Positions 4,702 through 62,781 of a DNA stretch of 64,000 nt are shown here, piece after piece (the stretch's first letter is position 1; the number at the start of each line of letters is the position of its first letter). The notes under the pieces were generated by a model. It did no database searches and was not told the origin of the DNA. It saw only the letters and a program-made list of their open reading frames with translations. The position numbers and the translations under genes are program-made. Origin of the DNA: Dehalococcoidia bacterium (lineage in GTDB: Bacteria; Chloroflexota; Dehalococcoidia; Lucifugimonadales; JADFKI01). The stretch lies in assembly GCA_965243355.1 (NCBI GenBank), contig OZ251547.1:1815475-1879474 (forward strand), in the 5' to 3' direction.

Positions 4702-5943
4702 ATGACATACGCGGCGGATTTGCATCTACACTCGCCTTACGCGCGGGCTACTAGCGGGCAGCTGACCTTTGACAATATGGCGCGCTGGGCGCGGGTGAAG
4801 GGGATTGATCTGATGGCGAGCGCGGATTTTACGCATCCGGTTTGGTTCGCTGAGACCAAGCGGGCGCTGACGCCGCTGGGGAACGGGCTGTATGAGCGTG
4901 GCGGCGCGCGGTTTGTTATAGGGACTGAGGTGAACTGCAGCGGGATGCAGGGGGGCAGGAACCGGCGGGTTCATATGCTTGTGTTCGCGCCGTGCGTTGG
5001 GGTGGCGGAGCGGGTGAACGCGGCGCTGGCGGGCAAGGGGGCGCTGGCGGCGGATGGGCGGCCGACGCTGCGTATGACGCCGCGCGAGCTGCTGGGGCGG
5101 CTGCTGGATATAGACGACCGAATGATGCTGATACCGGCGCACGCATGGACGCCGCATTTCGGCGTGTATGGGGAAAGGTCGGGGTTTGATTCGCTGGGGG
5201 AGTGCTTTGGGGATCTTGCGCCGCATATCCGCGCGATAGAGACGGGGCTGTCAAGCGATCCGGCTATGAATTGGCGCGTTCCCGAATTGGATGATGTGAG
5301 CATCGTTTCGTTTTCGGACGCGCATTCGTTGCCTAAGATGGGGCGGGAACTGACGGTGATAGACGGGGAACTGAGTTATGAGGGGTTGCGGGCGGCGTTG
5401 GATGGGCAGGGGATTGCTTATACGGTGGAGTTTTTTCCTGAGGAGGGGAAGTATCATAATTCGGGGCATCGCAGGTGCGGGGTTAGTTTGTCGCCGGAGG
5501 AGGCGCTGTTGGCGGGCGGGCGGTGTCCGGAGTGCGGCGGGCGTTTGACGGCGGGGGTGTTGGAGCGGGTGGATATGTTGGCGCGACGGCAAGCGGATGG
5601 GGCAGACGGGTTGGATCGTGGTGATGGCAAGGGTCGGCCGCCGTTTAGGTCGTTGGTGGGGTTGCAGCAGATTGTTGCTGAGAGCGTGGGAAGGGGCGTG
5701 AATACTAAGGGAGTGCAGGGTCGGTATATGCGTTTGGTGGAGGGGGTTGGGAGCGAGCTGCATATATTGACGGCGGCGGCGATTGGGGATATAGCGGCGG
5801 TTGGGGGGGAGCGTATCGCTGAGGGGGTTGAGCGGGTTCGGAGGGGGGATATTGTGATTGAGCCGGGGTATGATGGGGTGTATGGGCGGGTGAGGGTGTG
5901 GCCGGATGGCGATAAGGGGGCGTGGCAGTTGGGGTTGGGGTGA
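4702..5943 (+). CDS. PHP-domain protein, endonuclease Q-like (TIGR00375-type)
   Basis: N-terminal DLHLHSPYA PHP metal motif plus a zinc ribbon CPECGGRLTAGVLERV, as I recall for EndoQ-family proteins. Confidence 0.6.
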   Translation: MTYAADLHLHSPYARATSGQLTFDNMARWARVKGIDLMASADFTHPVWFAETKRALTPLGNGLYERGGARFVIGTEVNCSGMQGGRNRRVHMLVFAPCVGVAERVNAALAGKGALAADGRPTLRMTPRELLGRLLDIDDRMMLIPAHAWTPHFGVYGERSGFDSLGECFGDLAPHIRAIETGLSSDPAMNWRVPELDDVSIVSFSDAHSLPKMGRELTVIDGELSYEGLRAALDGQGIAYTVEFFPEEGKYHNSGHRRCGVSLSPEEALLAGGRCPECGGRLTAGVLERVDMLARRQADGADGLDRGDGKGRPPFRSLVGLQQIVAESVGRGVNTKGVQGRYMRLVEGVGSELHILTAAAIGDIAAVGGERIAEGVERVRRGDIVIEPGYDGVYGRVRVWPDGDKGAWQLGLG

Positions 5944-8859: not shown

Positions 8860-9110
8860 GCGCAAGCCAATCGTGTTGACTGCGACGGTTGGGATTGACT
8901 TACGATAGCCAATCGTATTAGTTGCGCCCGTTGGGATTGACTTGTGATAGCCAATCATCACCGCGCAAGTCGTTCACAAGCCATACTCATATGTCGTCGC
9001 ATAAGCCGTTAACATAAGCCGCCGCGCAAGTCATCACACAAACGGTCAACATAATTCGCCGCACAAGTCATCACGCAAACGGTCAACATAAGCGGTCAAC
9101 ATATGTCGGC
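8860..9110. repeat. Degenerate tandem repeats in a roughly 340 bp non-coding, AT-richer spacer
   Basis: ggttgggattgacttRYgatagccaatcRt occurs twice (8886-8916, 8928-8958). cgcRcaagtcatcacRcaaacggtcaacataa occurs twice (9024-9055, 9059-9091), with partial units on either side. Confidence 0.8.
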
Positions 9111-28525: not shown

Positions 28526-31054
28526 ATGTTGGGAATATCGCGTGGAGTCGGGGCTTGGCTGGGCGTTGTTGCGCTGGTGGCGTGCGCACTGTTGTGGCAG
28601 GGATACGGGGATAGCGTAGCGGTGGCCGCGCGTGATGAAGTTGCGACCGGCGATGCGGTTGCGCCGACGCTGAAAGTTGCCTCGGATTCCCAAGAATTGC
28701 TGACGGAGACTTCGGTATCCGCTGAGGAGAATTCGTCTAAATTGGACGAAGTAGCCATAGATAAGATGCTTGCGAACACATCTTACATGCCGGATCAAGG
28801 GTTCGTGTCTTTGGACGAGCGCATACTGCGCTCTACCATTATCGCTAGAGCCACGATGCGTTCAGTGGAGGCTTACGCCCGCGAAGGAAACTGCACGGAT
28901 GAGGAATGCTTTTTCCCTATGGTTCGATTTACCTTTGATGTGCATGAATACCTAAAAGGCAACGGCGGCAATGCCATAACCGCTAGCATATCGGTCGAAT
29001 GCACACATTGGAACTGGTGGGAATGCGGCCCTCCTGAGCAAGAGGCTATTGACGATGCCAACGAATGGATTTCCGGAGAAACCAATCGCTGGTGGGAAAA
29101 TAGGGAATCCATTATCTTCCTAAAAGAAGATGAACTTAACAACTCTGAGGCGTCAGGGCAATCCGCTTTGCCAAGTTATAAGTTCCTCCCATGGATTGGC
29201 GATTACGCCACTACTGACCTATATCCTTATTCTGATACGGACGAGTTTTCCGTACTCAGCGATCGGAATAGAGTTTGGCTGCCCGCGTCCACCGCGTCGT
29301 TTGGCGCGCCTTGGGCAAGCGAATCGCGGTTTATGCTGGGCGAGATGCCGAAAGATTGGGACCTGCTGCAGCAAGGGACGACGGGATCGTTTTCGTTTGA
29401 CACTGACATATCGCTGTCAGATTTGAAATCCCGCATCAATGCGGTGGCGGCTCTGGTGAAACAAGGCGAGGGGGTAGCGAAATACGAGGAGTGTTTGCGC
29501 TTTAAGCTTTGGCTAAGCCGAATTCCCTGGACCCCTTATTCGCTGGAATTCCCCTTTCAGTCAGGTCTAGGAGCGGGGTCTATAGTCGTCTCAACTTATA
29601 CGAGCGGCGAAGAATATCGCATCTACTTCTTCACGGGAAATGACAAGAACTTCTTCGAAATTGTCTTAAAAGATACTGACAGCGACCCGTACAACACCTA
29701 TTACCGCATAGTGAAAACTGCGCGCCCATTGGTCGCGGGGGATTACTCCGTCAGGTATCATCAAAAGTCGGGGATTCTCAGGCATTGCGTTGAGTCTCCG
29801 CTAGAAGAATACAAAGACGATCCCACGGCAAATTGGACAATCCGCGCAACGGCGCCGGCGGGGACTTTGCATGAGGCGTTCTTCGATCCGGTTGCGATTG
29901 GCTCGGCGGTGGGCGCGGATGGCGATAATGGCGCGCTGACGCCCGCGGCGTTCCCTGGGGCAAGCGGCGCTGACGCCGAAATTCGCCGCGTGGACTGGGA
30001 ATCCGACGTCGTCAAGATTGAGATAGCCAATCCGCCCGCGTCTCTCGCCAACCATCATATAGACTTTATCGCGCTGGATGGGGCTATTGCGCTGCGGTTG
30101 GATTTTGACGACGCGGCGGTTTCTGATGCCGAAGTTGTTCGGACTTTCAGTTGGGTTAGGTGCGGGCGGCCTTGGCATGCAGGGGATATGTTGATGCTGC
30201 GGATAAGCGAAAGTCCGGAGGATCTTGTGGGGGCGACGAGCCAGGCGTCATGCTCTGATGCGACGCCTACGCCTATGCCGTCCGCTACGCCAATACCCGC
30301 ACATACCGCGCAATGCTCAAACGGGGTCGCCGTGCCTAACCCCGCGAGCAACCCCGGCCTTGTTGCGGACTGCGCCACGCTGCTCGCCGCAAAGGATACG
30401 CTTGAAGGCGATCGCGGCAATCTGAACTGGTCAGCGGATGTTGGCATTAGCGATTGGGAGGGCGTAGGCATAGACGACGATGGCGTGGCGACATTGGAGT
30501 TGAGCGAATATCGCTTGAATGGCGCAATACCGCCGGAGTTGGGCAGTCTTGCCAATCTCTGGATTTTGGATCTCAACAGCAATCAACTGACGGGCGAAAT
30601 ACCGCTGGAGCTAAGCAATCTTGCCAATCTCAGCATTGCGAGGCTTGGCGACAATCAGTTGGCGGGCGCGATACCAACGGGGTTGGGCAGTCTTGTCAAT
30701 ATCTGGTCGCTGGATCTCGGCGGCAATCAATTGACGGGCGGGATACCCTCAGAGTTGGGCAACCTGTTTAATCTCGAGGATTTGGATCTCTCCGGCAATC
30801 AACTGACGGGCGAGATACCCTCAGAATTGGGCAGCCTGTTTAAGCTTGAGGATTTGGGTCTCTCCGGCAATCAACTGACGGGTGAGATACCGCCGGAGTT
30901 GGGCAACATTCCCTATCTTTTGGAATTGACTCTCATCAACAATCAGTTTACGGGATGTATTCCTGACTCCCTGTTCTCGGCTTTGAACCACAAAGGCGAG
31001 GTAAATCTTGTTGAGTCAACGAGCATATGGGGGATGCCGTTCTGCGATGATTAG
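28526..31054 (+). CDS. Secreted/anchored large protein with C-terminal plant-type leucine-rich repeats
   Basis: Signal-anchor MLGISRGVGAWLGVVALVACALL. A Pro/Thr linker, an LRRNT-like cap (LLAAKDTLEGDRGNLNWSADVGISDWEGVGID), then about 8 x 24-residue LxxLxLxxNqLTGeIPxeLGxL repeats. Confidence 0.85.
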   Translation: MLGISRGVGAWLGVVALVACALLWQGYGDSVAVAARDEVATGDAVAPTLKVASDSQELLTETSVSAEENSSKLDEVAIDKMLANTSYMPDQGFVSLDERILRSTIIARATMRSVEAYAREGNCTDEECFFPMVRFTFDVHEYLKGNGGNAITASISVECTHWNWWECGPPEQEAIDDANEWISGETNRWWENRESIIFLKEDELNNSEASGQSALPSYKFLPWIGDYATTDLYPYSDTDEFSVLSDRNRVWLPASTASFGAPWASESRFMLGEMPKDWDLLQQGTTGSFSFDTDISLSDLKSRINAVAALVKQGEGVAKYEECLRFKLWLSRIPWTPYSLEFPFQSGLGAGSIVVSTYTSGEEYRIYFFTGNDKNFFEIVLKDTDSDPYNTYYRIVKTARPLVAGDYSVRYHQKSGILRHCVESPLEEYKDDPTANWTIRATAPAGTLHEAFFDPVAIGSAVGADGDNGALTPAAFPGASGADAEIRRVDWESDVVKIEIANPPASLANHHIDFIALDGAIALRLDFDDAAVSDAEVVRTFSWVRCGRPWHAGDMLMLRISESPEDLVGATSQASCSDATPTPMPSATPIPAHTAQCSNGVAVPNPASNPGLVADCATLLAAKDTLEGDRGNLNWSADVGISDWEGVGIDDDGVATLELSEYRLNGAIPPELGSLANLWILDLNSNQLTGEIPLELSNLANLSIARLGDNQLAGAIPTGLGSLVNIWSLDLGGNQLTGGIPSELGNLFNLEDLDLSGNQLTGEIPSELGSLFKLEDLGLSGNQLTGEIPPELGNIPYLLELTLINNQFTGCIPDSLFSALNHKGEVNLVESTSIWGMPFCDD
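30491..30975 (+). repeat. 72-nt periodic coding repeats (LRR units)
   Basis: Near-identical DNA units, e.g. ggcaatcaactgacgggcgagataccctcagaattgggc..., recur every 72 nt. Confidence 0.85.
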
Positions 31055-38135: not shown

Positions 38136-38188
38136 CGAAAAGCCCGTCCCTCAGCGCGGCTTAGCGCGCGACATCAAGGGACGGGCTT
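38136..38188 (-). terminator. Intrinsic terminator of the leuS T-box leader
   Basis: Minus strand aagcccgtccct...agggacgggcttttcg: a 12 bp stem followed by a U-tract, directly downstream of the T-box sequence. Confidence 0.7.
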
Positions 38189-38487
38189 ATCTTTGTCAGA
38201 TATGGATACCCGCGGTACCACCCTAGTTCCCCGGCATCAAATCGTGGCAAGGCGATAAGGGCCGGGGCGCTCGGAAAGCGATAACGGCACTTGGGGCCGT
38301 CTCGCCCTAGCACAAGGGGCCGGCGGTCAGCGCAGGCGCGGAGGGCATGGCTGACGCGGCTGTGGTTCAGGCGAGCTGCTCAGGGACGAGTTCGCGGGAT
38401 TTCGCGCGCCGGGGTTTCCACTATTCCCGGCTCTCTATGGCGGATTTGCCCGCTACTACTTCCCGTCGGCGCATTCTCATATTCATT
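38136..38487 (-). promoter_or_regulatory. T-box riboswitch leader (candidate Leu CUC specifier)
   Basis: Minus strand contains AACUAGGGUGGUACCGCGGG (38211-38228 on plus coordinates), the conserved T-box motif. It also has AGAGAG and AGUGGAAACC stem-I-like motifs and GAACUCG as a specifier candidate. Upstream promoter candidate: TTGACG, 17 nt spacer, TAGCGT (38494-38522). Confidence 0.8.
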
Positions 38488-43215: not shown

Positions 43216-43291
43216 GGCCCCATCGTCTAGGGGACTAGGACAGCGGCCTTTCAAGCCGCAAACACGGATTCGAATTCCGTTGGGGCCACCA
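43216..43291 (+). tRNA. tRNA-Glu (UUC), CCA encoded
   Basis: Hand-folded cloverleaf: acceptor GGCCCCA/TGGGGCC, anticodon stem GCGGC/GCCGC with loop CTTTCAA, T-arm ACGGA TTCGAAT TCCGT, 3-prime ACCA. Confidence 0.9.
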
Positions 43292-47586: not shown

Positions 47587-47693
47587 GTATGGGTATATTT
47601 GTTCGCATTAAGAATAACGGGAGGTTCAAGTGGTGTCAAGGGTTATTTTCAAATTGGCAAATTGCGCTATAATAGGAATATAGGAGGCGAGCA

Positions 47694-49139: not shown

Positions 49140-50498
49140 ATGTTGGCGGTTGCTGAGAAGGCGGCGCGGTATGATTGCGCGGCGGTGTCGCTGTCTAGGC
49201 GCGTGGCGCGCTTGGTAGCCGAGGATGCGGCGGCGCAATCGTCATACGGCCGCGCGGCGGTTCATTCTGAGGATGCGCTGGCGGTTTTGTGGAGCAGGGC
49301 GCATAGTTTGGCGGAGGCGCTGGTTACGGAGGATGGGCGTCGGTTGCGGGTTGTGTATCCGGGCAGGCGCAGCGCGGCGGCGGGGCCGGATTTTCGGGAT
49401 GCGGTTTTGGTGGACGAGGCGGGCGGGCGTTTGGTGGGTGATGTGGAGTTGCATATTAGCGCGGGTGGTTGGCGGGCGCATGGGCATCATGTTGACGCTA
49501 ATTATAACGGCGTGGCGCTGCATGTGGTTTTTTCGCCGAAGGGGAGTCGGGTTACGCGGTTGCAGTCGGGGATGGAGGCGCCTGTGGCGGCGTTGGAGGG
49601 GGTTGCGGCTAGGCTGGAGGGGGCGTCGGATGATGCGTTGCCGGATTTGGCGGGGGTTAGGCTGACGGGCGATCCTGACGAGGTTGCGGCGGCTTTGGAT
49701 GCGGCGGGGGATGCGCGGTTTTTGGCTAAGAGTAGGGGGTTTGGGTTGGAGTTGGGGGCGTTGGATGCTGATGAGGTTTTGTATCGCGGGTTGATGGATG
49801 CTTTGGGGTATTCGGCTAATCGCGGGGCGTTTGGGGCGCTGGCGCGGCGCGTGGGGTATCGGGCGCTGGCGGGGTTGCGGGATACGCCGCGGGGGACTCG
49901 GCCGGCGGCGGTTAAGGCGATGCTGCTGGGGGCGTCGGGGTTGATGGGGGCGGCGGATATGATAGAGGGCGTTGGGGAGTTGCGGGGCGTCAGAAAGCGG
50001 TTGCCGTATGTTAAGCCTGTGGCTAGGCGGGAGTGGTGGTTGTTTCGGGTTAGGCCGGCTAATCATCCGGCGCGGCGGATTGTGGGGGCGGCGCTGATTG
50101 TGGAGGGGTGTTTGGATGACGGGTTGGCTAGGGCGTTTGAGGGGGCGCTGATGGCGGGCGGGAGCAGAGGGTTGATGGCGCGGCTGGTGGTGAAGCCGTA
50201 TGTGGGGGTTGCGCGGGCGCGGGATGTGTTGGTGAATGTGGCGTTGCCGTTTTTGCATGCGTATGGGGTTGCGGGCAGTGCCGGGCAGGGATCCGGCGGC
50301 GGTAGCGCGTTGGCTAGGGCGGCGTTGGAGGCGTATGCGGGTGCGCCGAAGTTGCAGGAGAATGAGATTACGCGGGAGATGCGGCGGTTGTGCGGGATTG
50401 ATGGCAAGGCGCGGTTGACGGCGCGGCGGCAGCAGGGGTTGATGCAGTTGTATCGGACGGGCGTGATGGGGGCGAATAGGGGGCGGGTGTGGGGATAG
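49140..50498 (+). CDS. DUF2851 family protein
   Basis: VVYPGRRSAAAGPDFRDAVL...GDVELHISAGGWRAHGHHVDANYNGVALHVVF matches the DUF2851 signature as I recall it. Confidence 0.65.
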   Translation: MLAVAEKAARYDCAAVSLSRRVARLVAEDAAAQSSYGRAAVHSEDALAVLWSRAHSLAEALVTEDGRRLRVVYPGRRSAAAGPDFRDAVLVDEAGGRLVGDVELHISAGGWRAHGHHVDANYNGVALHVVFSPKGSRVTRLQSGMEAPVAALEGVAARLEGASDDALPDLAGVRLTGDPDEVAAALDAAGDARFLAKSRGFGLELGALDADEVLYRGLMDALGYSANRGAFGALARRVGYRALAGLRDTPRGTRPAAVKAMLLGASGLMGAADMIEGVGELRGVRKRLPYVKPVARREWWLFRVRPANHPARRIVGAALIVEGCLDDGLARAFEGALMAGGSRGLMARLVVKPYVGVARARDVLVNVALPFLHAYGVAGSAGQGSGGGSALARAALEAYAGAPKLQENEITREMRRLCGIDGKARLTARRQQGLMQLYRTGVMGANRGRVWG

Positions 50499-51412
50499 GG
50501 TGTGTGCGCCGTGCGGTGGGATTGGCGATTGTGGTGGCGCTAATGCTGGTGGTAGCGGCGTGCGTGGGTGGGACTGCCGATGATGCGGCGGGTGACCAAG
50601 CGGCGGCGACGTCAGGGGGCGAGACGTTGCGGTTGGTGGTTGGGGCTAACGATTTGGCGGTGGGGAGCAATCGGGTTGTGTTTGGGGTGATAGATCCGGG
50701 TGAAGGGGCGATAAGGGGGGAGCAGGTGCGGGTGTCTAGTTTTTGGTTGCCGCCGGATGGGGAGCGGGTGGGGCCGGTTGAGAGCGTGGAGGCGGTGTTT
50801 CGGGAGTGGCCGGTGTCGCCGCGGGGGGTTTATACGGCGGAGTTGCGGTTTGATAGGGCGGGGGATTGGGGGATTGGGGTGGTTGTTGTGGGACCTGGCG
50901 GGAGCGAGCGGAGGGCGTCTGTGCGGGTGGGGGTGAAGGCGGAGTCGGGGACGCCGGCTGTGGGGGAGCGGGCGCCGGCGAGTCGGAGCAAGACTTTGGC
51001 GGATGTGGGGGATATTGGGGAGCTGACTACGGATGTGGATCCGGATGCGGGGTTGTATGAGGTGAGTGTGGCGGAGGCGCTGGAGATGGGGATGCCGCTG
51101 GTGGTGGTGTTTTCTACGCCGGGGTATTGTCAGACGGCGACTTGTGGGCCGCAGTTGGATGTGGTTAAGCAACTCAGAGCGGAGTATGAAGGGCGGGTGA
51201 ATTTTGTGCATGTGGAGGTGTATGACAATCCGGATGAGATTGGGGGGGATTTGAGCAGGGCTGTGGTGTCGCCGACGGTGGGGGAGTGGGGGTTGGCGAG
51301 CGAGCCGTGGACGTTTGTGGTGGATGGGGAGGGGGTTGTGCGGGCTAAGTATGAGGGGTTTGCGACGCGGGGGGAGGTGGAGGAGGGGGTGAGGGGGGTG
51401 ATAGGGGAGTGA
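50489..51412 (+). CDS. Lipoprotein with C-terminal thioredoxin-fold domain (CxxxC, SCO/TlpA-like)
   Basis: Lipobox LVVAAC. VVFSTPGYCQTATCGP is a redox/copper-type motif. Confidence 0.6.
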   Translation: MGIGCVRRAVGLAIVVALMLVVAACVGGTADDAAGDQAAATSGGETLRLVVGANDLAVGSNRVVFGVIDPGEGAIRGEQVRVSSFWLPPDGERVGPVESVEAVFREWPVSPRGVYTAELRFDRAGDWGIGVVVVGPGGSERRASVRVGVKAESGTPAVGERAPASRSKTLADVGDIGELTTDVDPDAGLYEVSVAEALEMGMPLVVVFSTPGYCQTATCGPQLDVVKQLRAEYEGRVNFVHVEVYDNPDEIGGDLSRAVVSPTVGEWGLASEPWTFVVDGEGVVRAKYEGFATRGEVEEGVRGVIGE

Positions 51413-51464
51413 GGGCGGGATTGTAGGCGAGTTAGCGGGGGTGTTGTTGTCATTGGGTTTTTAG

Positions 51465-51528
51465 GCAAAAGCTGAGACCGCCCATTAAGAGCGGTCTCGC
51501 GCCCTGGCACCGAAGCAGCAGGGGAATT
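51465..51528 (-). ncRNA. Candidate small RNA, copy 1 (5-prime stem-loop plus intrinsic terminator)
   Basis: Minus strand reads AAUUCCCCUGCUGCUUCGGUGCCAGGGCGCGAGACCGCUCUUAAUGGGCGGUCUCAGCUUUUG. It is preceded by TTGACA, 17 nt spacer, TATACT. Confidence 0.5.
51466..51498 (-). terminator. Intrinsic terminator of sRNA copy 1
   Basis: gagaccgc/gcggtctc stem followed by a CUUUUG tract on the minus strand. Confidence 0.6.
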
Positions 51529-51534
51529 AGGTTA

Positions 51535-51563
51535 AGTATAGTTGGGTTGTGGGTGGGTGTCAA
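51535..51563 (-). promoter_or_regulatory. Sigma70-consensus promoter of sRNA copy 1
   Basis: Minus strand TTGACA (51558-51563), 17 nt spacer, TATACT (51535-51540). Confidence 0.6.
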
Positions 51564-51574
51564 GGGTTTTTGGG

Positions 51575-51595
51575 TTGGACGCCGTTGACGATGAT
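51575..51595 (-). pseudogene. Remnant of a DUF1330 gene 3-prime end
   Basis: The minus strand encodes IIVNGV(Q), against IIVDGV-stop at the end of the intact DUF1330 gene (53220-53240). The surrounding DNA is also homologous. Confidence 0.4.
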
Positions 51596-51599
51596 TATT

Positions 51600-52223
51600 C
51601 TACCAGCGTGGGGGTTTGTGGAATGTGCCTGTGGCGTCTGTTAGGGTGTGGGGGAATTGGCTTGCGCTTAGGGGGCCTTGCCTTATGGGCCTGTAGAAAC
51701 TGGCTGCGTCTTTCAATACCCGATTGGGCCTCTTTTGCGGATTTAGCACTCCTACACTTAGGCCGAATTCGTCCTGGACAATTTTTATTGGGGTTAGGAG
51801 GTCTGCGTCGTTTGATACGACTACGGCTTGTTCGTATTCGTTTCTGAAGGCGTCTAGGAGCAGGTAGCTTGCTAGGTTGACGTCGGTTCCTTTTTCCTCG
51901 GTTCTGAGGACTTCGACCATCCGAGAGCCGTCTGCGGGCGGGCGGGATAGCGGCATTCTGCGCGGGTTGGTTTGGAAGTATCCAAGGTGAACTGAGAGGT
52001 TGGGGATTGTGCGGATGGCGCGGAGATAGGTTTGCTGCCGATGCCCCTTTTGGGTATCGTGTGGGGGTGGATTGACCAGGGCGGCGAAGTATCTGATTCG
52101 ATTTACCCGGCAACCCGGCAGCAGCAGGTTGAATAGGGTTAGGAAGTCAAGCCATTTGTACGGGGCGCCTTGGAGGCTGCCCTTGTATAGGTTGAATCCG
52201 TCTATGTAGAAGTTAGTCAGCAT
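51600..52223 (-). CDS. NYN (LabA-like, PIN-related) domain nuclease
   Basis: MLTNFYIDGFNLYKG..., EEKGTDVNLA and VVVSNDADL acidic motifs typical of the NYN domain. Visibly lower GC than its neighbours. Confidence 0.8.
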   Translation of the reverse strand: MLTNFYIDGFNLYKGSLQGAPYKWLDFLTLFNLLLPGCRVNRIRYFAALVNPPPHDTQKGHRQQTYLRAIRTIPNLSVHLGYFQTNPRRMPLSRPPADGSRMVEVLRTEEKGTDVNLASYLLLDAFRNEYEQAVVVSNDADLLTPIKIVQDEFGLSVGVLNPQKRPNRVLKDAASFYRPIRQGPLSASQFPHTLTDATGTFHKPPRW

Positions 52224-52228
52224 TTTTC

Positions 52229-52259
52229 ACAAAAGCTGAGACCGCCCGAAGGCGGTCTC
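52229..52259 (-). terminator. Intrinsic terminator between sRNA copy 2 and the NYN ORF
   Basis: gagaccgcc-cgaa-ggcggtctc (9 bp stem, tetraloop) followed by a CUUUUGU tract. Confidence 0.6.
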
Positions 52260-52292
52260 GCGCCCTGCCGCCGAACCGACAGGGGAGTTCAC
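52229..52292 (-). ncRNA. Candidate small RNA / leader, copy 2, ending 14 nt before the NYN start codon
   Basis: Minus strand reads GUGAACUCCCCUGUCGGUUCGGCGGCAGGGCGCGAGACCGCCUUCGGGCGGUCUCAGCUUUUGUG. Same architecture as copy 1. Confidence 0.5.
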
Positions 52293-52298
52293 GCATTA

Positions 52299-52328
52299 AG
52301 TATAATCCGGATCTAAACGGGGTGTCAA
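52299..52328 (-). promoter_or_regulatory. Sigma70-consensus promoter of sRNA copy 2 / NYN
   Basis: Minus strand TTGACA (52323-52328), 18 nt spacer, TATACT (52299-52304). Confidence 0.6.
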
Positions 52329-52420
52329 GGGTTTTTGGGGTATGGTATTCTTACCTTGCAGTGCTGATATGATATACTTGCCCTAAACCGCTCCGAAACC
52401 GCTGAAAGGCAGGTGTCATT

Positions 52421-53190
52421 ATGGCGAGCCAAAGAGTGTACAGACATGACGCGCTATGCCCGAAATGCGGCTCGAATTGGGTCAAGAAAGACGGCCACTC
52501 GCGCGGCAAGCAGATATTTAAGTGCAACCAGTGCGGCCGCAAGCATCAAGAGGGCGCAAAGCATCGGTTCACCGATGAGCAGAAAGAGCAGGCTGTGAAG
52601 ATGTGCGCGGAGGGGATGAGCCTATCGGCGACCGCCCGCGTGATGGGCGCGAGCGTACCCACTGTAAGCAAGTGGGTCAAAAAAAGGGGGCCTTGGCGAG
52701 AGAGCGTCTGACGCGCTTTATAGAGTGGCGTACAAGTGGGCGGCAAGACAGCGTCCGCGCGTCTATTGTGGCGTTTGATGAGATGTGGACATACTTGGGG
52801 ATAAGGCGCGGCGAGCGGCGTCAAGACCTGTGGATATGGACTGCGGTGGTGGAGGAACGGGACGGAGTCCGCTGGCGGATGTATGAGGTGGGCGGCAGAG
52901 ACTTGTCCGCGTTCTCGCGCTTGCTGGATCGGCTGCCGGGAGCTGACAGGTATGAGACAGACGCTTATCCGGTGTACGAATGGCTGCCTCGGGACAGGCA
53001 TGTGATAGGCAAGGGCGGAGCGGTGAACTGGAATGAGGGGCTGCACTCTAAGCTGAGGAGCAAACTCAACAGGCTGGTAAGGCGGACAAAGGGCTACACA
53101 AAGAGCGTGGAGATGCTGAAACATCTGCTGGCGATAGTGTTTGAGGAGTGCCTAAATCAGTCCATCAAATCAATGAACACTGCAAGGTAA
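52421..53190 (+). CDS. IS1-family transposase InsAB (InsA 52421..52711; InsB frame joined by -1 frameshift)
   Basis: InsA zinc finger CPKCGS...CNQCGRK plus an HTH. InsB frame contains VAFDEMWTYLG. The two frames overlap at an A7 run. Confidence 0.85.
52679..52685 (+). other. Programmed -1 ribosomal frameshift site (A7 slippery run)
   Basis: gtc aaa aaa agg in the InsA frame. The -1 frame continues KKGALARERL... of the InsB ORF. Confidence 0.7.
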
Positions 53191-53219
53191 GAATACCTGG
53201 GGTATTGGGTGGTTTTGGG

Positions 53220-53507
53220 TTAGACGCCGTCGACTATGATGACGCTGCTGGTGGTGGAGGCGATACGCATTTGTTTGGGGGCGGCGTATTCGGGGGAGTC
53301 GTACCACTGGCGGGCGCGTTGGACGCTGGGGAATTGGAGGATGACGGTGCGGGTGGGGGTCCAGTCGCCCTCGCGGACTTCGCTGTCGCCGCCGCGGACT
53401 AGGTATTTGCCGTCGTAGGCGGCTACGGTGGCGGGGACGAGTTTGCGGTATTCGTCGAATAGGGCGGGGTCGGTTACGTTTACGTCGGCTATTACGTATC
53501 CTGGCAT
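53220..53507 (-). CDS. DUF1330 domain protein
   Basis: MPGYVIADVNVTDPALFDEYRKLVPATVAAYDGKYLVRGG is a typical DUF1330 sequence, 95 aa. Confidence 0.8.
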   Translation of the reverse strand: MPGYVIADVNVTDPALFDEYRKLVPATVAAYDGKYLVRGGDSEVREGDWTPTRTVILQFPSVQRARQWYDSPEYAAPKQMRIASTTSSVIIVDGV

Positions 53508-53573: not shown

Positions 53574-53981
53574 TCACGGCTGTAGGGGTGCGATGTCAAG
53601 GGGGTTGGGGCGGTGTTGCCAGCCGCGGGCGGTGGCGATGGTTCTCAGTTCGTCTGCGGCATATCTGGTCATTCCTCTGGTGAGCGCGGTGAAGTCTATT
53701 AGCGTGTGCTCAGGGAAGGGGGCAGGGTCGGGGGTGACTGCGAGGTCTAGCGATTCACATTCGGCTACGGTGACCGCTAGTACTCCTACGGCGTTTTGGC
53801 CGAGGCCCGGGGGAGAGCCGGTGTAGTGTTCGTAGGCGTCTTGGGGGGTGATTTGGTCGCCGTCATATACGGATAGGCGGCCGTTGTCTTTTCGGGTGGG
53901 CTTGAAAACTTGGGATGTGGGATTGCCGTCTTTCATAAATGACGGGCTGACCATCCGATAGAGCAGGGTGTCCGGGGTCAT
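53574..53981 (-). CDS. Hypothetical protein (135 aa), downstream member of a coupled pair; candidate toxin/effector
   Basis: ATG 53981 overlaps the upstream stop as ATGA. MTPDTLLYRMVSPSF...GRLSVYDG...VAECESL. I recognise no family. Confidence 0.55.
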   Translation of the reverse strand: MTPDTLLYRMVSPSFMKDGNPTSQVFKPTRKDNGRLSVYDGDQITPQDAYEHYTGSPPGLGQNAVGVLAVTVAECESLDLAVTPDPAPFPEHTLIDFTALTRGMTRYAADELRTIATARGWQHRPNPLDIAPLQP

Positions 53982-54610
53982 CCGGCTCGCTCCAGAGTCT
54001 CGAGGATTTTGGCTGCCATCCAAGTCCACGCGCTAGGGTCGTCCAAATTGAGGGTCTCTTCTTCCTCAAAGGTTTTGGTTCTTCTTTTGAATCGTATCCA
54101 GTCCGCTTGGCGGGCGTTTAGGTCGATTTCAATCTCGATGTAGAATTGCCCTATCGACCATTCGCATTGGACGCCGCCGTCGAAGGTGGGGTAGGTGTGT
54201 GGCAGCGGGATGTCGGCGGGGTATCCGCGTTGGAATGCGTGGGAGAGCCAGTCTAGGCCGCTGTGGGACGGGGCTTTGCCGTCGCCCTCGTACCAGCCGT
54301 CTTGCATATTGCGAAATTCGTCTAGGGAGGCGTGGAAGTCTAGCGGATGGAGTATGGCGACGCGCTCTACCGATTTTAGGGCGAGCGGGCGGTCTTTGGG
54401 GTCAGGGTTGCCCGCGCCGTCAACTACGCCCTCAATTAGGACGCGGGTGGCGTTTTTGTGGCCGTTGAGGGCTTTTAGGAAGGCGGCGTAGCATTGGTCA
54501 GGGATGGGGCCGGATATTTTGTTGTGGCCGTGAATGGGCTGAAGTTTGAAGGTCATATTGGCTTGGTTGAGTTCGGTTATTTCGCCGCGGATGGCGATTT
54601 TTTTGGACAT
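53978..54610 (-). CDS. Hypothetical protein (210 aa), upstream member of a coupled pair; candidate antitoxin/immunity
   Basis: AGGAG RBS before ATG 54610. C-terminal pattern DGWYEGDGKAP...PTFDGGVQCEWSIGQFYIEIEID. I recognise no family. Confidence 0.55.
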   Translation of the reverse strand: MSKKIAIRGEITELNQANMTFKLQPIHGHNKISGPIPDQCYAAFLKALNGHKNATRVLIEGVVDGAGNPDPKDRPLALKSVERVAILHPLDFHASLDEFRNMQDGWYEGDGKAPSHSGLDWLSHAFQRGYPADIPLPHTYPTFDGGVQCEWSIGQFYIEIEIDLNARQADWIRFKRRTKTFEEEETLNLDDPSAWTWMAAKILETLERAG

Positions 54611-54657
54611 TCCCCGCTCCTGTCTAGCCATATTGAGATGATGGGGGTATAGGTGGG

Positions 54658-62638: not shown

Positions 62639-62781
62639 GGTAGGTTCTCCTGGTGAATGTTGTGGTTTGCGATATGGCGGGCGCAGTAAGGCGTTGCGCC
62701 GTGTGTGCATATGATAGCGGGCGGATTGTGGGTGTCAAGGGTTGGGGGTAGCGGGATTGTGTGTTAGGGAAAGCGGGGGGA

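Follow-up and report, generated by a model that had tools for sequence, protein, structure and literature searches.

The stretch of DNA analysed here (the window) comprises 64,000 nucleotides (nt) of the forward strand of a Dehalococcoidia bacterium contig (OZ251547.1, positions 1,815,475 to 1,879,474, assembly GCA_965243355.1) and carries a gene for a predicted nuclease of the NYN fold, hereafter called NYN, together with two copies of a small RNA module, one directly upstream of the gene and one past its stop codon. The RNA belongs to a structured bacterial family that spans more than 10 phyla and is absent from Rfam 15. The RNA and NYN probably constitute a type III-like toxin-antitoxin or abortive-infection module in which the RNA acts as antitoxin, and this is the reading that we favour, with some reserve, over the alternatives weighed below.

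The linkage between RNA and nuclease was established in a sample anchored on NYN, in which a scan of one genome per species gave 80 loci with proteins 46-58 % identical to that of the window. An initial annotation, made from the letters of the window only, had proposed building a covariance model from homologous loci; such a model (R1) was built, covariation was seen, and R1 recovered the RNA beside NYN when searched in the window and 83 loci, which together make 84 NYN loci and 568 kb. The sampled phyla are Chloroflexota, Actinomycetota, Pseudomonadota, Acidobacteriota, Verrucomicrobiota, Planctomycetota, Gemmatimonadota, Deinococcota, Armatimonadota, Saccharibacteria and others. R1 gave 85 matches of at least 32 bits, 83 of them at 43-82 bits, and all adjoin NYN. 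With default filters the RNA was found beside NYN in 82 of the 84 loci (L032 and L076 scoring 32-33 bits), and with the filters off weaker copies were found in the remaining two, L066 and L078 (27 and 31 bits). The RNA therefore lies within about 120 nt of NYN in 84/84 loci, NYN without the RNA was seen in none of them, and no full-length R1 match was obtained away from NYN in the 568 kb, save one of 18.9 bits in L029, about 750 nt upstream. The RNA also stands beside NYN on a Leptospira plasmid (42.9 bits), on the Escherichia coli plasmid pKMi006_5 (3461 bp; 31.7 bits) and on 4.6-kb E. coli plasmids (26.8 bits), and in the Mycobacterium prophage prophiGD43A-1 it is convergent with NYN between the integrase and repressor genes (59.6 bits). 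RNA of the UUCG/GCGAGG type accompanies proteins at least 44 % identical to that of the window, and a AUUAAGUU type goes with a group at 28-33 % identity.

The RNA consists of a 5' hairpin (P1) and a terminator hairpin (P2). In an alignment of 77 instances (A3, produced with MAFFT from an nhmmer seed), 93 % of cells pair under the two-hairpin structure compared with 36-48 % when the 3' partners are slid, changes on both sides occur in 17 of 20 pairs, and none of 500 shuffles reached the observed values. The consensus reads AUCCCCCC-nGUnGC-UUCG-GnGGCnGGG-C/U-GCGAGGCCGCC-(loop 4-27 nt)-GGCGGCCUC-U-GC-UUUUU, in which the P1 loop is a UUCG tetraloop and the sequence of P2 varies freely. Conservation of 90 % or more is also seen over and above the pairing, in the C-run, the CUUCGG loop, the GGG and the GC of the junction, and the same RNA, with compensatory changes, stands upstream of NYN in loci of 71 % and 61 % protein identity. 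The 4227 models of Rfam 15 gave no family for the motif at the gathering threshold, no match at E <= 10 in window positions 51300-52500 and nothing overlapping the RNA motif at E <= 1 in 10 diverse loci. A search of the literature on NYN or HEC-09 with non-coding RNA, RNA antitoxins or type III systems found no paper linking them, the supplements of Weinberg 2017 not being covered. What would be added is a conserved bacterial RNA family of more than 10 phyla.

Both window modules were found as the initial annotation had described them, that is, as minus-strand units of promoter, hairpin and terminator (Table 1), and in a promoter scan each promoter matches 11 of 12 consensus positions. Copy 2, upstream of NYN, has a predicted start near 52292, P1 at 52284-52263 (with the loop taken as GUUCGG because the loop-closing pair is G.G), a linker C at 52262 followed by GC, P2 at 52261-52235 with a bulged A at 52237, and the U tract UUUU at 52234-52231; it folds at -36 kcal/mol (z = -3.7 against shuffled sequence) and scores 71.6 bits with R1 (E = 3e-19). 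Copy 1, which stands alone past the NYN stop codon, has P1 at 51523-51502 with a UUCG loop, P2 at 51500-51471 and the U tract at 51470-51467, and scores 62.2 bits (E = 2.6e-16; fold z = -3.0 against shuffled sequence). The modules are 82 % identical across about 150 aligned nt, and the exact 16-mer CAGGGCGCGAGACCGC has two sites in the window, both within the RNA modules. The -35 context ACCCTTGACACC of both modules recurs on the minus strand at 47632-47647 and 62731-62746 and looks like a promoter style used genome-wide. Chance or a generic promoter repeat was rejected as an explanation of the modules, the -35 context being generic but the RNA body not. The promoter at 47632 also has TTAATGCG downstream of its -10 box.

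Table 1 Features of the NYN locus in the window, with nucleotide identity to the syntenic locus L001
Feature	Position	Strand	Description or basis	Identity to L001 (%)
RNA copy 2 promoter	52299..52336	-	A-rich stretch, TTGACA 52328-52323, 18-nt spacer, TATACT 52304-52299	
RNA copy 2, about 62 nt, directly upstream of NYN	52230..52292	-	Sequence, fold, covariance model	85.9
NYN nuclease gene (coding sequence)	51600..52223	-	207 amino acids; PF01936 and PADLOC candidate defence family HEC-09	86.5
NYN third codon positions				77.7
RNA copy 1 promoter	51535..51571	-	TTGACA 51563-51558, 17-nt spacer, TATACT 51540-51535	90.7
RNA copy 1, stand-alone, past NYN stop	51466..51528	-	Duplicate of copy 2; covariance model, fold	93.8
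60 nt beyond copy 1				65
Duplicated remnant of DUF1330 gene 3' end	51572..51595	-	atcatcgtcaacggcgtccaaccc, compare 53240-53217; direct sequence comparison	
IS1-family element	52344-53197		insA-like frame 52421-52711, DDE frame 52603-53190	
DUF1330 gene	53220-53507			98.6
PDC-M32B match	53574-54029	-	PADLOC candidate defence, E = 6e-45; overlaps PDC-M32A gene	
PDC-M32A match	53978-54631	-	PADLOC candidate defence, E = 4e-54	

From 52238, where the main stem of copy 2 ends, it is 14 nt to the NYN ATG at 52223, and this interval has no Shine-Dalgarno sequence, in agreement with the initial annotation; its further claim, that NYN is expressed only by read-through of copy 2, is borne out by the lack of room for a second promoter. 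Copy 1 had been placed immediately after the NYN stop with no open reading frame behind it. The position stands, the module beginning 28 nt beyond the stop codon (51600-51602), and the second part nearly does: beyond copy 1 lies the 3' end of a convergent gene (50489-51412, plus strand), and a mechanical list of reading frames includes a 126-amino-acid frame with a GTG start (51130-51510, minus strand) that overlaps copy 1, is antisense to the convergent gene and is nothing we would call a gene. The P1 stems of the two copies had also been said to differ in partly compensatory ways, and this needs correction: the differences are mostly one-sided, wobble pairs or mismatches, and not strictly compensatory, and true covariation emerges only in the wider comparison.

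Several arrangements of the RNA relative to NYN were found. About 66 loci of the NYN-anchored sample (~80 %) have the RNA on the NYN strand and upstream of the gene. The distance from the end of the terminator stem to the NYN start codon then has a median of 17 nt (4-42 nt in 65/69 same-strand loci), and the ribosome-binding region of NYN abuts the terminator hairpin; since the terminator stands just before the gene in these loci, NYN there should depend on read-through. In 12/84 loci, mostly of Actinomycetota (two being metagenome-assembled genomes labelled only 'bacterium'), the RNA is convergent and directly downstream of NYN, its terminator ending 1-31 nt short of the NYN stop codon. A motif-anchored metagenome sample supplied 12 more convergent and 9 divergent instances, the divergent copies lying on the opposite strand 74-116 nt upstream of NYN. 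The RNA occurs on both sides of NYN in the window, in L001 and in the distant locus L072 (Terriglobia).

A promoter of its own nearly always accompanies the RNA, in every class of arrangement. Among 187 motif instances, 71 % have a TAnnnT hexamer that begins 24-17 nt ahead of the first paired C, compared with 4-13 % at other offsets, and TTGACA-like hexamers peak at -44 to -42. The position of the -10 box places the start of transcription at the conserved A of AUCCCCCC, and the box is present in every class, namely 19/24 convergent, 7/9 divergent and 22/39 NYN-less copies. The RNA would be a primary transcript of about 60 nt running from its own promoter to its own terminator. The combination of an own promoter and varied orientations argues that the RNA is a separate gene and not only a leader.

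The initial annotation had offered, as an alternative to a type III system, a cis-acting attenuator or riboswitch, and a related possibility is that the RNA is a leader in the 5' untranslated region of NYN which the nuclease may bind or cleave, thereby regulating itself, with copy 1 a by-product of duplication. The predominance of same-strand upstream copies, the short median distance from stem end to start codon, and the read-through that the window arrangement requires all speak for such a leader, which can coexist with the toxin-antitoxin reading; terminator attenuation is indeed part of the design in the common same-strand arrangement. As the general mechanism it is nevertheless unlikely, because in the 24 convergent and 9 divergent instances the RNA cannot lead NYN, bacteria and phages carry NYN-less copies that have promoters of their own, the third codon positions of NYN are less constrained than copy 1, and copies on both sides of NYN recur as far away as L072. 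A riboswitch or attenuator leader is also unsupported on structural grounds, the UUCG tetraloop offering no ligand pocket and the free variation of P2 leaving no conserved aptamer or alternative antiterminator pairing. A type I antisense arrangement was rejected because in the main arrangement the RNA lies upstream on the sense strand without overlapping the coding sequence, and in convergent loci it ends short of the NYN stop codon, although complementarity in trans was not searched systematically.

The window NYN protein matches PF01936 in Pfam (E = 1.8e-8; 35.4 bits against a cut-off of 24.2), with no ToxN/AbiQ superfamily match in the same search, and the PADLOC profile HEC-09 over its full length (E = 8e-37; profile positions 6-202 of 203). 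A sequence search of solved structures gave marginal matches only, so a fold search was needed; the AlphaFold2 model (mean predicted local distance difference test score of 93) has as its closest folds in Foldseek 2qip (E = 1e-8) and the MARF1 NYN domain (E = 1e-5). Residues D8, D114, D139 and D141 are invariant in a comparison of 24 homologues, and the predicted active site is intact, with the modelled fold and the acidic residues of an NYN RNase. The start codon is secure, as an in-frame TGA stands two codons upstream of ATG 52223. A protein search returned 2592 homologues at E <= 0.001, and homologues are carried by 421 plasmids, some of just 3.4-4.6 kb, in hosts that include E. coli, Klebsiella and Salmonella. 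Some homologues (plasmid matches H44, H54 and H67, and L230 1168-2124) are annotated '6-hydroxy-3-succinoylpyridine 3-monooxygenase HspA/nicB', which on NYN-domain proteins is probably a propagated misannotation.

Copies of the RNA without NYN were sought by scanning public collections for a pattern made up of P1 and the linker alone, followed by scoring of the matches with R1, and nearly all matches proved to be complete motifs. Of the 49 metagenome copies flanked by 900 nt or more on either side, 38 lie beside NYN and 11 (~22 %) do not, and on viral contigs (16 of which matched the pattern) 9 of the 10 copies scored for adjacency are without NYN. The viral copies belong to real phage genomes, where they stand between terminase and portal genes or beside a portal gene; several are intergenic beside terminase, portal or nucleotide-metabolism genes, and -10-like hexamers precede some of them. 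That NYN never occurs without the RNA, and that the RNA sometimes occurs alone, as it does in phages, is as expected of a toxin and its RNA antidote. Another protein partner of the NYN-less copies was considered and rejected, a search of reading frames within 2 kb with the NYN profile giving a single distant NYN (L148), and all-against-all clustering of the reading frames beside these copies found no recurring family.

Some NYN-less copies lie among defence genes. One, in L110 (5304-5367), has an SNF2/NOV_C helicase gene on one side and on the other an Abi_2 gene with its own abiF RNA, is adjoined by a DUF1156 methylase gene, and stands in what looks from its gene content like an Hma-like system. 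This copy precedes the abiF RNA (5466-5511; RF03085, 37.1 bits) and its Abi_2 gene by about 100 nt, and R1 and RF03085 match different sites, placing two antitoxin-type RNAs side by side. Another copy is flanked by a DNA methylase gene on one side and a PglZ-domain gene on the other, a context suggestive of BREX. These settings, the share of about one-fifth of well-flanked metagenome copies without NYN, and the lack of any other recurring protein family would suit an RNA that has nothing to do with NYN, such as a portable cassette or insulator of mobile DNA or a small RNA with other targets. Such a view is very hard to reconcile with the presence of the RNA within about 120 nt of NYN in all NYN-anchored loci, across more than 10 phyla and in four orientations, which is not the pattern of hitch-hiking, and conservation beyond pairing (the C-run, CUUCGG and the GGG(C/U)GCGA junction) points to a specific binding partner; we regard it as highly improbable.

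Homologues on plasmids include a locus with a repeated RNA. On E. coli plasmid p5-S1-IND-02-A, where NYN is 35 % identical to the window protein, the order is promoter (TTTGCA, 17 nt, TG-n-AATAAT), tandem repeats, terminator and NYN, and the array consists of 3.5 copies of the 33-nt unit CCUGUGGCGUGCCGCAGGCGAAGAAACAACCCU, each with a P1-like hairpin and a C-run; as read from the sequence, this layout is that of a canonical type III toxin-antitoxin locus. The module occurs on plasmids in 10/5426 complete E. coli genomes, where the coding sequence alone is annotated. Tandem Repeats Finder, applied upstream of eight plasmid-borne NYN loci, detected an RNA array only in the 4.6-kb E. coli type, its other matches falling outside the RNA. 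Two diverged units were recognised by eye on a small Klebsiella plasmid and in L065. Plasmid-borne NYN of the 28-33 % identity group (Klebsiella, Xanthomonas, Pseudomonas) is preceded by a C-run, a hairpin, a G-run, an A-rich linker and a terminator; the hairpin differs, with a AUUAAGUU loop, and the Klebsiella plasmid has two such units. The architecture in this group was recognised by inspection, R1 scoring only 13-17 bits there.

The classical type III toxin-antitoxin families are ToxIN, CptIN and TenpIN, as Blower and colleagues reportedly set out in 2012. Phage phiTE escapes ToxIN by means of a pseudo-ToxI RNA. Those systems share with the NYN locus the order of promoter, antitoxin RNA, Rho-independent terminator and endoribonuclease gene (a predicted one in the NYN locus), the occurrence on plasmids and in defence contexts, and the existence of phage-borne RNA copies, which are known as escape devices, and the 3.5 x 33-nt repeats of the E. 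coli plasmid homologue are comparable to the 5.5 x 36 nt of ToxI. A small non-coding RNA stands beside the nuclease gene in 84/84 loci, on plasmids and in a prophage, and a Rho-independent terminator separates the two in the window and in the same-strand loci, a feature that does not apply to convergent and divergent ones. The suggestion in the initial annotation that the gene order is that of a type III locus is strengthened by its conservation across phyla, by the constant presence of the RNA gene with NYN and by the E. coli plasmid array. Its caveats also hold in the window, which has a single RNA unit per promoter in place of a tandem-repeat antitoxin and an NYN fold in place of a toxin of the ToxN/AbiQ superfamily. 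The NYN loci differ further from the classical systems in that the protein is PIN-like, the RNA is mostly one unit of two hairpins, with a 5' end fixed by where transcription starts and not by processing, its gene may also be convergent with or divergent from that of NYN, and toxicity and binding are here deduced. Lacking a ToxN-fold toxin and, in the window, a repeat array, the module is set as a variant of the type III kind and not as a member of an existing family.

Precedent for a type III system without the ToxN fold is provided by AbiF, a HEPN toxin with an upstream non-coding RNA, which is accepted as such (PMC12373285, PMC12737573). The AbiF/abiF RNA pair (AbiFr, RCd22, RF03085) resembles the NYN module in being associated with defence and in occurring in prophages, and differs from it in the protein fold, HEPN against NYN, and in the RNA. 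The window nuclease belongs to HEC-09 (Payne et al., bioRxiv 10.1101/2024.01.29.577857), an NYN/MARF1-like predicted RNase family embedded in defence systems and published as a single-protein candidate with no RNA component and no defence phenotype; the RNA partner is added here, so that a widespread candidate defence gene gains a second component. Regnase-1 and MARF1 of eukaryotes have the NYN catalytic fold in common with the window protein, and differ in being multidomain and in having no known dedicated small-RNA partner gene. Regnase-1 recognises stem-loop RNAs, one of them in its own mRNA.

The proposed mechanism is as follows. The strong sigma-70 promoter would produce an RNA of about 60 nt made up of a 5' AUCCCC tail, the UUCG-capped P1, a one-nucleotide linker, and P2, which doubles as intrinsic terminator. 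Most transcripts would end at P2, giving a large excess of RNA, and rare read-through would yield the NYN mRNA and hence a low level of NYN, whose translation would probably be damped as well by the closeness of the start codon to the terminator stem (4-42 nt, median 17). The RNA would bind the NYN RNase and hold it inactive, and when the supply of RNA falls, for example through phage shut-off of host transcription or plasmid loss, freed NYN would cleave cellular RNA, phage RNA or both. Copy 1 would be a second antitoxin gene, independently transcribed and derived from a segmental duplication, which raises the dose of RNA. The NYN-less phage copies would be antitoxin mimics and point to phage-encoded RNA mimics as a form of counter-defence. 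Binding, neutralisation, toxicity and the trigger of release are all deduced from the sequence. If the mechanism is correct, NYN/PIN-like would join ToxN and HEPN/AbiF as the third toxin fold known to be governed by RNA-antitoxin (type III) logic. The hypothesis is open to direct testing in a standard host by means of the 3.4-4.6 kb E. coli plasmids.

Several points weigh against this interpretation. The evidence for it consists of sequence and predicted structure. The one HEC-09 representative to have been tested did not protect against the coliphages used, in a paper that mentions neither toxicity nor RNA (bioRxiv 10.1101/2024.01.29.577857). Tandem Repeats Finder found no array in most loci and the window has one unit per promoter, which gives no reason to assume that the toxin processes the RNA. 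The surroundings of some NYN-less copies are ordinary chromosomal ones, such as the position after purH in L196, and the RNA may accordingly have a role of its own. The conserved adjacency also fits an RNA cofactor equally well, and only the NYN-less and phage copies favour an inhibitor.

As such a cofactor, the RNA would be a positive partner, scaffold or sensor of an NYN ribonucleoprotein, for instance by way of its conserved single-stranded 5' AUCC tail. In its favour, no sampled locus departs from the adjacency, the subfamilies of the RNA diverge along with those of the protein, and the lineage from AbiF to Cas13 indicates that antitoxin RNAs can turn into guides (PMC12737573). We think this somewhat doubtful proposal has only a small chance of being right, as the RNA sequence is nearly constant across phyla and so has no variable guide segment, a nuclease gene set behind a strong promoter and a terminator should leave the RNA in the large excess typical of an inhibitor, and an activator without NYN would be of no benefit to phages. 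There is a slimmer chance that the RNA is a recognition subunit, its invariant single-stranded 5' AUCC(C) tail and P1-P2 junction sensing a phage or host nucleic acid or protein and activating NYN. The module would then be an RNA-gated immune effector, early on the path from AbiF to Cas13, and the phage copies would be decoys.

A remnant of the 3' end of the DUF1330 gene precedes copy 1 both in the window and in L001 (NYN 85 % identical), which identifies copy 1 as a duplicated segment made up of the DUF1330 3' end and an RNA module; the duplication therefore predates the split of the window and L001 lineages. The hypothesis that the modules are the ends of a mobile cassette was rejected, since the remnant at copy 1 marks a local segmental duplication. 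Between the window and L001, the copy 1 RNA is 93.8 % identical compared with 77.7 % at the third codon positions of NYN and 65 % in the flank, from which it follows that the stand-alone copy is maintained by selection, a point in favour of the toxin-antitoxin reading. The identities in Table 1 indicate that the NYN slot evolves, or is exchanged, far faster than the neighbouring core DUF1330 gene.

In L001 the site is uninterrupted, the DUF1330 gene being followed by copy 2, NYN and copy 1. In the window an IS1-family element, absent from L001, is inserted 15 nt upstream of the -35 box of copy 2, with 25-nt inverted repeats and an 8-bp target duplication, ATACCCCA. The adjoining PDC-M32A and PDC-M32B genes have no Pfam or NCBIfam match, and their presence together with NYN suggests that the region is a defence island. 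In three unrelated genomes tRNA genes lie 0.3-2.4 kb from the module (L006 2242-2312, L015 581-653, L043 3875-3948), which would fit islands integrated at tRNA genes.

Elsewhere in the window, eleven copies of an AT-rich palindrome of about 39 nt, GCTACTTTTTTGGAAAAAAGTAGC then AAAAAACTTTTG (family D2), are present in this GC-rich genome at 1586, 7781, 17710, 20105, 22321, 33852, 46064, 47541, 57864, 60367 and 62777, two of them in or just upstream of promoter/5' untranslated regions. Rfam at the gathering threshold gave nothing for these palindromes, which could be repetitive extragenic palindromic (REP)-like elements, bidirectional terminators or regulatory elements. Two further repeat families are located at 8993-9103 (three tandem copies of a 37-nt unit, D15) and 30504-30919 (five copies 72 nt apart, D1). 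The window also contains a T-box leader at 38174-38478 on the minus strand (104.6 bits) and a tRNA-Glu(UUC) gene at 43216-43291 on the plus strand.

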